A program made the position numbers and the translations under genes. Source: Chloroflexota bacterium (lineage in GTDB: Bacteria > Chloroflexota > UBA11872 > VXOZ01). Taken from it: a stretch of 64,000 nt of DNA. This document shows, piece after piece, positions 42,046-64,000 of this stretch (position 1 is its first letter; the number at the start of each line of letters is the position of its first letter). The DNA lies in the NCBI GenBank assembly GCA_012270555.1, contig JAAXIC010000029.1:11601-75600 (forward strand). The letters are read 5' to 3'. Under the pieces are notes generated by a model. That model was given only the letters and a program-made list of their open reading frames with translations, did no database searches and was not told the DNA's origin.

Positions 42046-42120
42046 TGGTACCCCCAGGGCGACTCGAACGCCCGCTCCTGGCTCCGGAGGCCAGTGCTCT
42101 ATCCACTGAGCTATGGGGGC
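42046..42120 (-). tRNA. tRNA-Arg (anticodon CCG)
   Basis: Minus-strand sequence GCCCCCATAGCTCAGTGGATAGAGCACTGGCCTCCGGAGCCAGGAGCGGGCGTTCGAGTCGCCCTGGGGGTACCA folds as cloverleaf: D-arm AGCTCAGTGGATAGAGC, anticodon stem CTGGC/GCCAG with loop CTCCGGA (anticodon CCG), T-arm GGGCGTTCGAGTCGCCC, encoded CCA. Coordinates +/-1. Confidence 0.85.
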
Positions 42121-59530: not shown

Positions 59531-60964
59531 CTAGCCCTTGTCGGCGTAGTACTCGTCAATCATCTCCTGCATGATCTTGCCGGCGCTTTGCATCGCTTCC
59601 GCGACGGTCAATTCCTGACTCCACGCCATGTTCATGTGGTCCAGGTAGACCCGGCGAATATCAACATAGTTGGGGTAGATTTGCGTCATGAAGCCGTTGC
59701 CCTCGCCAATCGGCTCCGTGATTGGGGTCAATTCGCGCGGAGGACGCGCCTTCTGCTCCGCCAAGCGCGGGTCATCCCAGGCCGATTTCACCACGGGCAT
59801 GCCGTAGTTCAGCAACGTGGTGACGCCGACCTGCACCTCGAGATCGGTGCTGATGAACTTTATCAGTTCCCACGTGGCGTCGGGACTCTTGGCGCCCGAC
59901 CACATGTACTGCACCGGGGTGTAGCTGCCCACCGCGTCCGAGTTTTCGCTCGCAACGCTATGGGCCGGGAAGCGCCGCGCTTTGACCGGCAATTCCTCGA
60001 CGCCCGGCACGTTCCAGCCGGATTCAGTGTTGAACCACGTGTGGAATACCGCGGCGCGCTGGTGCACGAACGGTGAATCACGACGTTGTTCCGCCGGAAT
60101 GGTGTCATTGAGCGCCGCCACGTCTTCCCGGGTCGGCTTTACGCGGTACCTAAACTCAAGGTCATACAGGAACTGGATGACATCGATGAACTCCGGTTCG
60201 TGCAGCCGGAAGCGCGCGTAGTCGTCGGTGACGAAGTTCGTGCCGTTTTGGATCAGCATCGTCGGCACTTCGGTGGTGGAGTCGTTGCGACTATAGAAAC
60301 CCCAAATGGGATTCTGATCGGCGCTGGAGCGTTGCGTGATCTCGCGCGCAGTCTCGAGCAATTCGCCGCCGTCACTGGGATTCCAGGTTTTCGGCGGTTC
60401 GTTGATGCCAAACCTATCGAGAAGGGCCGTGTTGTAGATTTGGATAGTAGCCAGCACGCCGTAAGGGAACGTCCATGACTTACCTTCGGGGTCCTGCAGC
60501 CAATCGATGCCCACCACGTCGGCAATCGCGGCCGCGTCGCGCTTAACAAAAGGCGTTAGGTCAGCAATATAGCCGGCGTCCCGATACTGAGGATAGCGGG
60601 TAGGCTCCGGGCCGAGGATGTCCGGCGAGGATCCGGCAGCGAGTTCCACCACCTGCTTTTCCATAAGCGCCCGATACGCCATGGACTGCCAGTTGACCGT
60701 GATGTTGGGATGCAGTTCTGCGAACGGGCCGAGCACGAGGTCCTCGAAAGCGCCCGCGTTCTCATGTATGTTCACGACCCAGTTAACGCTGACCGTCGCC
60801 TCTTCCATCGCGGGCATGTCTTCTGACTTAGGCGCATCGTCGGCCTCCGGCGCGGCAGCCGGCGCCTGCGCCACGCCGCAAGCAGCAAACACGGCCACGG
60901 TGCCCGCGCCCGCCGTTGTTGCCAATAGGCCACGACGCGTGATGTTTGTACGTTGTTCCGTCAT
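59531..60964 (-). CDS. ABC transporter substrate-binding protein (family 1 extracellular solute-binding), Tat-lipoprotein
   Basis: TRRGLLATTAGAG twin-Arg, lipobox FAACG, then Ala/Pro/Glu/Asp linker; SBP_bac_1-like fold. Paralog of 61168..62601 (same length 477 aa, about 60% aa identity by eye). Confidence 0.8.
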   Translation of the reverse strand: MTEQRTNITRRGLLATTAGAGTVAVFAACGVAQAPAAAPEADDAPKSEDMPAMEEATVSVNWVVNIHENAGAFEDLVLGPFAELHPNITVNWQSMAYRALMEKQVVELAAGSSPDILGPEPTRYPQYRDAGYIADLTPFVKRDAAAIADVVGIDWLQDPEGKSWTFPYGVLATIQIYNTALLDRFGINEPPKTWNPSDGGELLETAREITQRSSADQNPIWGFYSRNDSTTEVPTMLIQNGTNFVTDDYARFRLHEPEFIDVIQFLYDLEFRYRVKPTREDVAALNDTIPAEQRRDSPFVHQRAAVFHTWFNTESGWNVPGVEELPVKARRFPAHSVASENSDAVGSYTPVQYMWSGAKSPDATWELIKFISTDLEVQVGVTTLLNYGMPVVKSAWDDPRLAEQKARPPRELTPITEPIGEGNGFMTQIYPNYVDIRRVYLDHMNMAWSQELTVAEAMQSAGKIMQEMIDEYYADKG

Positions 60965-61167: not shown

Positions 61168-62601
61168 TTACTCTTTCTCGGCCCAGTACGCGTCTATCAC
61201 CGCCTGCGTGTGTTTGCTGGAGTTCTGCATGGCTTCCTCAACGGTGAGCTCCTGCTTCCACACTAGCGATTTTTGCTCGTTGAAGAATCCCAAATGCTCC
61301 CGCCAGCCGGGGAAGATCTGGGTGATAAAGCCGCGGCCTTCCCGGAGCGGCTCGGCAATGGCGCTAATCTCGCGCGGCGGACGGGTCTTGGTCGCCGCCA
61401 GACGGGGATCGTCCCACGCATTTGCGTTCGCCGACAGGCCGTAGTTGAGCAGTGTTGTCACCGCCACACCAAACTCGATGTCCGACATGGCGAACTTCAT
61501 GAACTCCCAGACGGCATCCGGGTGCTTTGCGCCGGACCACATGTATTGCACCGCCGTCCAACCGCCTACCTTGTCGGAAGTCGGCCCTCCCTTGCTGTTC
61601 TCCAGCATGGGTACGGCCTTCATGGGCAGGTTTTCCACGTCTGGGTGTGTCCAGCCGCTCTCGGCGTTGAACCAGGTATTATTCATCGCCGCGCGCCCGT
61701 GCACGAAGAGCGCGTCGCGATGCCGGCCCTCGCCCAAGGTCTCTCTGAACGCAGCTTTCGCTTCAGCGGAGGGGGCCACGCGGTACTTGAACTCAAGGTC
61801 AAACATAAACTGTATGGCCTCGATGAATTCAGGCTCGTGCATGGTTGCCCGCCTCAGGTCGTCGTCGAGGAAATTGCCGCCGTTCTGAACGACGTAGGTA
61901 CTCAACTCGGTTGTGTAGTCTGCGCCGGTGTAAATGCCCCAAATCGGGTCTGGCTCGCTGCTTGACCTACTCGTTATCTCCCGCGCGACGTCAATGTACT
62001 CGCCGCCGTCACTGGCATTCCACTGCCGTGGCGGCTCGCTGATCCCATACTTGTCGAAGATGGACGTATTGTAAATGTGGATGGTGCCGAGCGCCGTATA
62101 GGGCATGGACCAGAAGCGTCCCTGCGGGTCGACGATCCAATCCAGCGCCACGGTGTCTCCGAGTTGACTCTGGTCGCGCTTGTAGAGGTCGGTGACTTCC
62201 CGCACAAACCCCTTGTCCGTCCACTCAATCCACCGCGTAGGATCGGGGGTGAGGATGTCGATGGCCTCGTTAGCGGCCAACTCGGCCAGCATCTTGTCAT
62301 AATGCGCCCGGTACGGTGAGCCTTCGTACTTGAGATCAATGTCGGGATGCATCTCCCTGAACCGGTTAATCACCCCGTCCTCGAACGCTTGCGCGTTCTC
62401 CGCGACGTTCACGATCCAACGCACGTTGACGGTTGCGGGCTCCGCCTTAGGCATGTCTTCAGCCTCCGGCGCGTCATCGGCTTCCGGTGCCGCGGTCGGA
62501 GCCTGGGCCACGCCGCAGGCGGCCAAGAGAGCGGCTCCGCTGAGACCGGCTGCGCCGGCGAGAAAACGCCGCCTACTCAAGCTGCTGAATGTGCTACGCA
62601 T
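61168..62601 (-). CDS. ABC transporter substrate-binding protein (family 1), Tat-lipoprotein; tandem paralog
   Basis: SRRRFLAGAAG twin-Arg, lipobox LAACG; collinear similarity to previous gene across whole length. Confidence 0.8.
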   Translation of the reverse strand: MRSTFSSLSRRRFLAGAAGLSGAALLAACGVAQAPTAAPEADDAPEAEDMPKAEPATVNVRWIVNVAENAQAFEDGVINRFREMHPDIDLKYEGSPYRAHYDKMLAELAANEAIDILTPDPTRWIEWTDKGFVREVTDLYKRDQSQLGDTVALDWIVDPQGRFWSMPYTALGTIHIYNTSIFDKYGISEPPRQWNASDGGEYIDVAREITSRSSSEPDPIWGIYTGADYTTELSTYVVQNGGNFLDDDLRRATMHEPEFIEAIQFMFDLEFKYRVAPSAEAKAAFRETLGEGRHRDALFVHGRAAMNNTWFNAESGWTHPDVENLPMKAVPMLENSKGGPTSDKVGGWTAVQYMWSGAKHPDAVWEFMKFAMSDIEFGVAVTTLLNYGLSANANAWDDPRLAATKTRPPREISAIAEPLREGRGFITQIFPGWREHLGFFNEQKSLVWKQELTVEEAMQNSSKHTQAVIDAYWAEKE

Positions 62602-62694: not shown

Positions 62695-63504
62695 CTAAGC
62701 GGGCGAGAGAGCTGCTCTGAATTCTTCCCCTGTGGCGGTAAGCGCACCGCCGATTTCGAGCCAGTGGATGAATGCCTTGGTCATGAGGTTTTCGCCGGTG
62801 GACCACGCAGTCTCCGAGGCGGCGGTGCAGTCCCGGAGCACAATGGTGCGGTAGCGGTTGCGGGTCTGCAGAATGCCGCCGGGCTTCATGAGCAGGCAGA
62901 AGTTGAGAAGGAACCCCACGTAGACGAGATTGAGAATCTTGCGTTCTTTAAGGAAACGCTCTATCTGCTGAGGTTGGGAAAATAGAGAGTCACGTGGGTC
63001 GGGTTTGACGCAGTCGGCAAAGTCGTAGTTGTCGCGAATCTTCTGCCAGGGCTCCGCGTAGCCTTCACCAAAGACTGTGCTGGAGTACTCGGCCAACAAC
63101 TCCCGGCGGAATTCAGGCGGCGGCCAGTCGGGGGTGTCGTCTGCGGGTATTCTTGACGGATCCGGCGGCTCAAACCCCGGATAGCGCGCGAGAATTTGGG
63201 GCGGTTCGTTGTGGATGACCGGCACCCCGGCGTCGCGCGCCGCCTGGAGTACGGGCACGATCTCCTCTGCCATGATCTTACCGGCCCGCTTTGCCACACC
63301 ATGCCCGCCCATGTAGTTGTACTCCCAGTACTTGTCCACACCGGGAATGATGGGATCGCCGTCGCCGCCAAGATTCCACATGTCAATAGCGATGACCGCC
63401 GTGTTCGCGGTATCAATCGCTACCGTCTTGTGCACGTGGCCGTAATTGCGGTCGTCATACGCCTGCCCGGGCAGCGGGTGGACGCGATAGGAGCGCACTG
63501 GCAT
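62695..63504 (-). CDS. isochorismatase-family hydrolase (cysteine hydrolase) - tentative
   Basis: VIAIDMWN block resembles isochorismatase ALLVIDMQNDF; C-terminal LVYVGFLLNFCL resembles catalytic-Cys region (…GvatnvCV…). ATG 63504 (MPVRSYRV…) preferred. Confidence 0.5.
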   Translation of the reverse strand: MPVRSYRVHPLPGQAYDDRNYGHVHKTVAIDTANTAVIAIDMWNLGGDGDPIIPGVDKYWEYNYMGGHGVAKRAGKIMAEEIVPVLQAARDAGVPVIHNEPPQILARYPGFEPPDPSRIPADDTPDWPPPEFRRELLAEYSSTVFGEGYAEPWQKIRDNYDFADCVKPDPRDSLFSQPQQIERFLKERKILNLVYVGFLLNFCLLMKPGGILQTRNRYRTIVLRDCTAASETAWSTGENLMTKAFIHWLEIGGALTATGEEFRAALSPA

Positions 63505-63599
63505 GTGAAATGTGGCCATAGTTGATACCGCAAACGATTGGACTGTTCAGAACCGACGTCTTGCCGATGACTCCTCCGTGATCCATCTGTCCGATGTCC

Positions 63600-63825
63600 G
63601 TTCACCCTTCGACAAGCTCAGGGCGAACGGTTTGTTGGTAGCCTAATTCTTTGACAGGCTTTGGGCGAGCGGTCTGTTGGCTGCCTTACCCTTCGACAGG
63701 CTCAGGGCGAACGGTTAATCGTGATGCTCTATCTGAAACTGAGTTGCTTGCTCATGCTGAGCCTGCCTATCGTCCGTTCATGCTGAGCTTACCTTTCGTC
63801 CGTTCGTGCTGAGCTTGTCGAAGCA
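63600..63825. repeat. MITE-like inverted-repeat element with internal short tandem sub-repeats
   Basis: Left arm cccttcgacaagctcagggcgaacgg (about 63605) and right arm ccgttcgtgctgagcttgtcgaag (about 63800) are near-perfect reverse complements (22/24). Between them three direct about 43-nt copies of the left motif and three about 30-nt copies of the inverted motif (…cgtccgttcatgctgagc…). No ORF. Confidence 0.45.
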
Positions 63826-63860
63826 CCTCTTGGCCTGCTGAGCGAATACACGAATTATCC

Positions 63861-64000
63861 TTAATAGGGTCGATTGAATGGTACCGTTGCCTCGGCAACC
63901 TCCTCCGACACCCTTCCCGCGTCCCGCGCGCGGCGCAGTTCCAGCAGGGTATCCTCCACCGCCTCCAGCGTCTCCGCCACGTCCTCGTCGCTGTGCGCGT
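63861..64000 (-). CDS. 3' end of a minus-strand CDS continuing beyond window (hypothetical, acidic C-terminus …VAETLEAVEDTLLELRRARDAGRVSEEVAEATVPFNRPY*)
   Basis: Open frame on minus strand from window edge to TAA (complement of tta at about 63861-63863); GC3-rich codons consistent with host coding bias. Confidence 0.4.
   Translation of the reverse strand, partial: AHSDEDVAETLEAVEDTLLELRRARDAGRVSEEVAEATVPFNRPY

Follow-up and report, generated by a model that had tools for sequence, protein, structure and literature searches.

Correia, ERIC and Nezha are examples of bacterial MITEs, or miniature inverted-repeat transposable elements. Another kind of short dispersed sequence is the REP palindrome, which in the CGTC-tagged families has a stem of 8-9 bp and a loop of 4-5 nt (PMC3733652). 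The Ssn family consists of single-domain GIY-YIG proteins of about 94 residues (CDD cd10448), whose genes are flanked by a hairpin repeat, referred to as NTS in Neisseria and as SRM in general; SsnA binds NTS solely as single-stranded DNA (ssDNA), on one strand, cuts it a few nucleotides upstream, and acts genome-wide on its flanking repeats (Chenal et al., Nat Commun 2025, PMC11893778). The Ssn architecture has been likened to an insertion sequence, and many nuclease/repeat pairs are expected (PMC11893778).

Here, a cluster of inverted and direct repeats in a 64-kb stretch of DNA (the window) is compared with these systems. The family to which the cluster belongs is like the bacterial MITEs in being small, multi-copy and non-coding, in lying between genes and in having inverted ends, but it differs from them in having neither target-site duplications nor a DDE-transposase parent, and in using a 27-nt hairpin singly, in doublets and in arrays. 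With the REP/REPIN-RAYT systems it shares the tagged short palindromes, the inverted doublets that form long hairpins, the absence of target-site duplication, the preference for the 3' side of genes and the presence of a single-copy gene with its own repeats on either side (Bertels & Rainey 2011, PMC3116915; Di Nocera et al. 2013, PMC3733652). However, its partner is a GIY-YIG nuclease and not an HUH Y1 transposase, its doublets are systematically heterotypic, and its unit sequence is conserved across phyla, whereas REPIN-RAYT systems are lineage-specific. Elsewhere the repeat flanks a small GIY-YIG gene, and the family is therefore most likely an Ssn-like system and not a classical MITE. This nuclease association, which was invisible to the first-pass annotation of the locus, changes the most likely mechanism.

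Results

Anatomy of the repeat cluster

The features of the locus, in window coordinates, are the following.

62695-63519, - strand: isochorismatase-like gene (274 residues), downstream of the cluster; on the sense strand its ATG follows the cluster by 78 nt
63598-63826, no strand assigned: whole cluster, made up of three units of one orientation followed by two half units and a full unit of the opposite orientation
63598-63630, + strand: unit 1, a complete 33-nt small hairpin CCGTTCaCCCT-[TCGACAAGCTC]-AGGGcGAACGG (core 63604-63630), GG-type
63646-63672, + strand: unit 2, degenerate, with the sequence CTTTGACAGGCTTTGGGCGAGCGG (74% relative to the reference copy, three mismatches in the 15-mer core)
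63688-63714, + strand: unit 3, intact, aCC-CT-TCGACAGGCTC-AG-GG-CGAACGG, GG-type
63752-63765, - strand: half-unit remnant TCATGCTGAGCCTG, without the tail and the GTCGAAG part
63774-63791, - strand: half unit, being the tail CCGTTCA plus TGCTGAGCTTA, truncated before GTCGAAG
63800-63826, - strand: full inverse unit gTG-CT-TCGACAAGCTC-AG-CA-CGAACGG, CA-type, heterotypic to units 1 and 3
63861-63863, - strand: TAA stop codon of the class-III aminotransferase gene (Aminotran_3), upstream of the cluster and 34 nt before it on the sense strand

The inverted and direct repeat structure reported in the first-pass annotation is present at 63598-63826. Its left half consists, as described there, of three direct copies of the left arm, one of them degenerate; the spacing, given as about 43 nt, is measured as 42 nt (63607-63732), and CTTCGACARGCTCAGGGCGAACGG is found in copies 1 and 3. 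In the right half (63752-63823) the inverse motif had been recognized correctly, but instead of three units of about 30 nt there is a period of 26 nt with one full unit and two half units, the sole complete inverse copy being 63800-63823, CCGTTCGTGCTGAGCTTGTCGAAG. The right end had been described as the reverse complement of the left arm, in agreement with the outer arms 63607-63630 and 63800-63823 being complementary at 22 of 24 positions; the 2-nt mismatch arises because the units are GG-type on one side and CA-type on the other. The CGAACGG tails of the cluster face inward, a layout designated F..R. When the 24-mer is searched with up to three mismatches, three occurrences are found in the 64-kb window, all of them in the cluster, where shuffled sequences give an expectation of 0.00, and a looser 15-mer search of the window shows no further convincing copy. 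The same intergenic sequence is found with 100% identity in two other metagenome contigs.

Energetically, the fold is favourable, as had been anticipated. The predicted RNA fold has an energy of -101 kcal/mol for the + strand (z = -5.3 versus shuffled controls) and of -88 kcal/mol for the - strand (z = -4.2), and as ssDNA the - strand of the cluster folds with z = -4.0. In the minimum-energy RNA fold of the + strand, the outer right unit has the inner left unit as its partner, whereas unit 1 together with the seven preceding bases forms its own 33-nt hairpin (63598-63630). The ssDNA fold of unit 1 has an energy of -7.2 kcal/mol on the + strand and of -9.8 kcal/mol on the - strand (z = -4.75).

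Flanking genes and transcription context

From the ends and starts of the flanking genes it follows that the cluster occupies part of the 341 nt between two cistrons of what appears to be an operon, with the order Amidohydro_2 (two genes), Aminotran_3, the element, the isochorismatase-like gene and SBP (two genes). This gene order is conserved in three relatives (loci L126, L127 and L129). The two SBP_bac_1 genes downstream of the isochorismatase-like gene are tandem paralogues of 477 residues each (59531-60964 and 61168-62601, - strand). Both genes next to the cluster are on the - strand; they are therefore tandem, and not convergent as previously proposed. The suggested role as a terminator is not borne out either: no T-run follows the hairpins, so that the signature of an intrinsic terminator is absent, and the region 63300-64000 contains 0 terminator-like sites on either strand. 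A promoter scan of the region found nothing.

Searching the region against Rfam at a permissive E-value gave a chance-level match to SCARNA6 alone (12.5 bits versus a gathering score of 68), and the repeat has no Rfam match in the whole window or in 14 loci with typical doublets. The sole Rfam match above the gathering score in the whole window is a tRNA gene at 42049-42120 (- strand). A 9-nt tandem repeat, CCTCCACCG, is present in 2.6 copies at 63953-63975, within the 3' end of the aminotransferase coding sequence, and is probably a quirk of that coding sequence.

The 27-nt unit and its distribution

Stacking of 283 copies gives a unit with sharp boundaries and the consensus R-NN-CT-[TCGACARGCTC]-AG-N'N'-CGAACGG, in which a complementary stem of 4-5 bp and free sequence encloses an invariant 11-nt loop (TCGACARGCTC) and is followed by an invariant 7-nt 3' tail (CGAACGG). 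Among 462 distinct units, the four loop-adjacent stem positions are paired in 92-97% of the cases, compared with 49-77% in shuffles. The NN and N'N' positions covary, with CG, GC and TA alternatives all being seen, and slid controls collapse; the unit is therefore a small hairpin with a free-sequence stem, an invariant loop and a one-sided tail. Compensatory stem changes are also observed at orthologous sites, where GGGCT/AGCCC at one locus is replaced by GGTTC/GAACC or CCGCT/AGCGG at another.

A scan of one genome per species with the query TTCGACARGCTCAGGGCGAACGG and a scan of viral contigs for the unit each gave at least 120 loci. The arm motif is not unique, and the objection that it might be falls away because the cluster belongs to a dispersed repeat family. 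Hosts among the matches listed are Sphingomonadales, Burkholderiales, Nitrosomonadales, Methylococcales, Moraxella and Solimonas, as well as Dehalococcoidia and other Chloroflexota, cyanobacteria, Nitrospirota, Sulfuricurvum, Anaeromyxobacter, Desulfuromonadales, Methylomirabilis and others. The taxon labels of the contigs of metagenome-assembled genomes (MAGs) may include binning errors, though several of the matches are on very long contigs, either megabase contigs or complete chromosomes. The 27-nt unit is among the most widely distributed short repeats sampled. It is this unit that is dispersed, and not the composite of about 220 bp that had been regarded as the mobile or repeated element: only the unit, as stretches of 26-33 nt, matches elsewhere. 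When the 246-nt region is compared with plasmids by BLAST, 11-28% of the query is covered, by single units or doublets, and 0 records cover 80% or more of it, so that the recurrence of a whole element, as for a MITE, is not seen. On the megaplasmids of the Sphingobium Tom* strains, the matches are spread over 3-14 places each. The 246-nt region has no match in reference phages.

The usual layout elsewhere is an inverted doublet, R..F, with the tails pointing outward and a spacer of 10-91 nt (median 33), and the F..R layout of the window is rarer; single units and tandem arrays are also common among the genome loci listed. The arms of the doublets pair within themselves (57 of 68 and 64 of 68 for the genome loci, 45 of 48 and 47 of 48 for the viral loci), whereas the NN positions are complementary between the two arms in just 6 of 68 and 8 of 48 doublets, respectively. 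The doublets are heterotypic, which implies that the constraint is on the small hairpins and not on one long hairpin, and that a perfect long palindrome is avoided. The window cluster obeys the same rule, with GG-type units on one side and a CA-type unit on the other. In the doublets of loci L001-L120 and L130-L249, the stem types are almost always mixed, GG being combined with CC or CA. The ends of the doublets are sharp and their flanks are not complementary. The search for target-site duplications that the first-pass annotation had proposed gave 0 of 86 doublets at k >= 4, and inspection of the sequence at the ends of the window cluster shows none.

Tandem arrays with fixed periods are seen at four loci: five units every 37 nt (L030, 3788-3959), five every 67 nt (L060, 2435-2726), eight every 61 nt (L255, 2013-2463) and four every 24 nt (L108, 312-428). 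The spacers in these arrays are near-identical, and the arrays are not CRISPR-like.

With a crude ORF heuristic, the unit clusters are found in tandem, convergent and divergent gaps in 44, 30 and 10 cases, the background counts being 360, 134 and 131. The median cluster position is 24 nt past the upstream stop and single units show no orientation bias with respect to transcription (six F, five R), both as judged from crude gene calling. This gene-context pattern is REP-like. The CGTC- and GTAG-tagged REP families themselves were rejected as a match, as the tag of the unit is CCGTTCG/CGAACGG and its stem and loop geometry differs. Integron attC sites, Tn3-type inverted repeats and IS200/IS605 ends were also set aside, since what we take to be their consensus sequences do not match. 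A full-text search with DNA and peptide strings derived from the unit returned no papers on it, and nothing relevant was found in the literature on sphingomonad REP sequences.

History of the locus

The window was compared with six orthologous loci that have the same gene order and protein identities of 80-91%. Six of the seven loci, the window counted, keep the element, and one is empty. On the sense strand, the shared pair begins with a CA-type F unit a short distance past the stop of the aminotransferase gene; its second member, ahead of the next gene, is a GG-type R unit that forms a complete small hairpin. At one locus (L128) the contig breaks off 117 nt upstream of the gene and includes the R side alone. 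The empty locus, L126, has a gap of 63 nt with no trace of the element, though it is nested in the protein tree. From this presence/absence polymorphism it is concluded that the pair is old at this locus and can be lost. A search of metagenomes for a further empty site with the 274-residue protein found only a 65% relative in a different context.

The units are near-invariant among the orthologous loci, and the surrounding intergenic DNA barely aligns. The centres between the paired units vary, with half-unit duplications, an inserted 15-nt palindrome and 20-nt tail repeats; the 3+3 structure of the window is the product of local tandem expansion, with 3 x 42 nt on one side and 3 x 26 nt on the other. 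At L127 (approximately 2780-2830), the 15-nt palindrome GGCTTCGCGAAGCCC is inserted in the loop of the F unit, and at L269 (520-640) tandem repeats of about 20 nt, each ending in GAACGGG, stand between two units.

Indels are also observed elsewhere. A syntenic pair of Sphingobium loci differs by a 143-nt indel that contains a doublet and is bounded by a 4-nt repeat, and the same pair has compensatory stem changes at shared sites. A similar indel is found when a Sphingopyxis locus is compared with the syntenic locus of an alphaproteobacterial MAG. In homologous Moraxella plasmids the doublet is present in seven of seven, and because all of them carry it, these plasmids are uninformative about mobility.

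A small GIY-YIG nuclease gene flanked by the unit

Among the ORFs lying between unit clusters, one (L095) encodes a GIY-YIG protein of 96 residues, has units within approximately 100 nt on both sides, and reads into a unit; the remaining such ORFs are ordinary or spurious, and a reading of the translations reveals no RAYT-like ORF. An all-against-all BLAST of the ORFs within 2.5 kb of the units at the 120 loci listed also shows no recurrent neighbour family or DDE transposase, the largest cluster comprising six loci. The GIY-YIG protein belongs to PF01541 (Pfam) and has no match in NCBIfam. Searching with it gives 1940 hits at E <= 1e-10; the best 120 of these 1940 are 73-89% identical, span Beta-, Gamma- and Deltaproteobacteria and Planktothrix, and include Rugosibacter, Rhodoferax and Neisseriaceae. 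In 101 of these best 120 homologues the C-terminal tail is encoded by the unit, the tail peptides being ALRQAQGER, VRPEPVEG...PSTSSGRT, FDKLRTNG and VRPELVEG. When both protein sets are combined, such tails occur in 134 of 201 proteins, with the unit order F in 58, R then F in 41, R in 29 and F then R in 6. Unit-derived peptides are likewise found in 71 of the 150 closest cluster representatives (clustered at 50% identity; 80% to 46% identical to the query); NTS peptides are represented among these 150 by two weak 5-mer matches only, which are probably due to chance.

In all six loci inspected, L095 included, the GIY-YIG gene of about 95 codons has units on both sides, and of the five loci beyond L095 four have the canonical unit and one has a variant unit. 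In the complete genome of Rugosibacter aromaticivorans the start is preceded, at a distance of 14 nt, by an R unit and the 3' end is spanned by an R..F doublet, and in the complete genome of Planktothrix eight R units are found upstream and three F units downstream. Units on both sides are also seen in a Neisseriaceae isolate and in one MAG. On a plasmid of Sphingomonas parapaucimobilis, a 51%-identical homologue is flanked by the matching variant unit CTTCGAC-TTC-GCTCAG. The neighbourhood of the gene differs in every organism inspected, with hsdM and hsdS, gyrB and dinB, or other genes on its two sides.

In Rugosibacter aromaticivorans (L254, CP010554.1, 975-3987) the gene and its units lie within a type I restriction-modification system, with hsdM, which appears split into two ORFs, on one side and hsdS on the other. 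At L258 (2770-2800) the stop codon of the GIY-YIG ORF, of 94 residues, is the TGA within the CTGAGC of the R unit, so that the coding sequence finishes within the repeat; owing to a shifted frame, the ORF of other copies continues through the unit.

The best relatives of known structure are UPF0213 proteins, small GIY-YIG proteins of the YhbQ type (PDB entries 1zg2, BH0048, E = 1e-16, and 1ywl, EF2693, E = 9e-13), and E. coli YhbQ is 37.5% identical to the partner nuclease. A tblastn search of the E. coli records of the plasmid collection finds no homologue above 38% identity, and the viral contigs contain no close relative, only eight distant ones without clear units. The 64-kb window itself has no GIY-YIG ORF. 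The element of the window is an orphan copy.

Comparison with the Ssn system

The family resembles the Ssn system in every testable feature. There is a small single-domain GIY-YIG gene with a short oriented hairpin repeat on both sides, in the same arrangement as NTS-ssnA-NTS; the same repeat is scattered intergenically, genome-wide and across phyla; and the nuclease and repeat variants appear to co-vary. The 27-nt unit, with its covarying 4-bp stem and one-sided CGAACGG tail, is within the 20-50 nt of the oriented Ssn/SRM hairpins, and the flanking on both sides is found for the family. However, the SRM consensus HGTCWYN(0-2)YYVSBRHN(0-5)WNVSBRGN(0-2)RNCYNB has 0 matches in 63501-63900 of the window and in the GIY-YIG loci, and the geometry differs: in the unit the stem has 4-5 bp, the invariant loop 11 nt and the 3' tail 7 nt, whereas NTS has a 5' CGTC tag, an 8-9-bp stem and a 3-5-nt loop. 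Because of the SRM mismatch and the different geometry, and because the nearest solved structures of the nuclease are those of UPF0213 proteins, the pair is filed as a putative variant of the Ssn-type kind and not as a proven member.

Discussion

What the region contains is probably an orphan group of recognition hairpins, shared across phyla, for a GIY-YIG ssDNA nuclease whose activity would generate or maintain the dispersed copies. According to this proposal, the units would fold into small hairpins wherever DNA becomes single-stranded, be it at replication forks, in transformation or in conjugation; the cognate nuclease, which may be encoded elsewhere in the source genome, would recognize the loop and the tail and cut nearby, and either its activity or the repair that it provokes would seed and maintain unit copies genome-wide. 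The inverted doublets with a short spacer would be gene-less derivatives of a unit-gene-unit element. At the present locus, an old F..R pair is situated between two co-transcribed genes, each member having been tandemly duplicated in this lineage, and any effect of the cluster on the mRNA of the operon would be a by-product.

It is possible, although we put this forward tentatively, that the R-unit/GIY-YIG gene/F-unit arrangement is an autonomous ssDNA-hairpin mobile element, with the nuclease acting as transposase or homing enzyme, with gene-less doublets and single units as its REPIN- or MITE-like derivatives, and with the pair spreading horizontally over at least eight phyla together with a near-invariant 27-nt module. 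If this is true, it would be a second, structurally distinct Ssn-type nuclease/site pair with a new ssDNA specificity.

Of the two classes named in the first-pass annotation, a MITE or a REP-like family, the second is the better description, and the defining features of the first are missing. A classical MITE would be a non-autonomous derivative of a DDE insertion sequence, moved by cut-and-paste via its terminal inverted repeats and leaving target-site duplications. The size of the cluster and its complementary arms fit, the family is multi-copy, and the R..F doublets resemble two terminal repeats around a short spacer. Such an origin is nevertheless very improbable, as neither the 86 doublets nor the window cluster have a target-site duplication, the composite is not repeated as a whole, no transposase or recurrent neighbour is found among the 120 loci listed, single units and tandem arrays are common, and each arm has its own covarying hairpin, which is needless for a plain terminal repeat. 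The candidate parent, R-unit/GIY-YIG gene/F-unit, encodes no DDE transposase, and the layout of the window is opposite to it (F..R). We also consider it improbable that the units are REP or REPIN sequences that a RAYT (HUH Y1 tyrosine transposase) mobilizes in trans, as is the case in Pseudomonas and Enterobacteria. The general anatomy is that of REPINs, with a short tagged hairpin, inverted doublets, no target-site duplication and an intergenic bias to the 3' side of genes (PMC3116915, PMC3733652), but there is no GTAG or CGTC tag, the stem of 4-5 bp and loop of 11 nt contrast with the 8-9 bp and 4-5 nt of the CGTC-tagged families, it is a GIY-YIG nuclease gene that the unit consistently flanks, no RAYT-like neighbour recurs among the 120 loci listed, and the unit is near-identical across phyla whereas REPIN-RAYT systems are lineage-specific and vertically inherited. 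That the repeats are older host or selfish sequences, into which the GIY-YIG gene inserts as a homing endonuclease, parasitising and not maintaining them, is likewise doubtful. It would agree with the position of the gene between upstream R-type and downstream F-type units, as if inserted in the spacer of a doublet (L254, L255), with the neighbourhood being different in each organism, and with the 73-89% identity across phyla of the best 120 homologues, which suggests recent horizontal transfer. However, it leaves the spread and conservation of gene-less units unexplained, the precedent SsnA acts genome-wide on its flanking repeats (PMC11893778), and the 51%-identical homologue with its matching unit variant suggests co-evolution and not opportunistic targeting.

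An explanation at the RNA level deserves more weight, although it is unlikely to be the main one. In this case the intercistronic stem-loops of the aminotransferase/amidase/transporter operon would be a partial terminator or a barrier to 3' exonucleases, kept for a host function. This would be consistent with the strong RNA fold (z = -5.3 and -4.2), with the location of the cluster 34 nt past a stop codon and between co-directional genes, with the family being enriched in tandem and convergent gaps, depleted in divergent ones and located at a median of 24 nt after the upstream stop, and with the conservation of the units at the locus while the flanking intergenic DNA diverged. A host-level RNA function could equally account for the long retention at the locus, and a role of the cluster in RNA stability is possible. 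Against this, there is no T-tract terminator and no Rfam family, single units occur in both orientations (F 6, R 5, from crude gene calling), one orthologous locus (L126) lacks the element, and the cross-phylum invariance of loop and tail and the linkage with the nuclease are left unexplained.

For genome annotation, recognition of the unit would remove spurious protein tails, as gene callers often extend ORFs into it (101 of the 120 closest GIY-YIG homologues). Ssn enzymes are under development as site-specific ssDNA cutters, and the present pair, with the conserved 11-nt loop and 7-nt tail as its likely recognition site, is a new candidate cutter. The link between the unit and a GIY-YIG clade extends the 2025 Ssn discovery to a repeat of different architecture, and suggests that nuclease/hairpin pairs occur generally in bacterial genomes and are horizontally mobile. 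In Methylobacterium bullatum (L252, LR743510.1, 1090-1640), the hairpin repeat on either side of a 45%-identical homologue is a different one, CCTCATCCTGAGGTGCC...GGAGGCCTCGAAGGAGG, which suggests that there are many distinct nuclease/repeat pairs.
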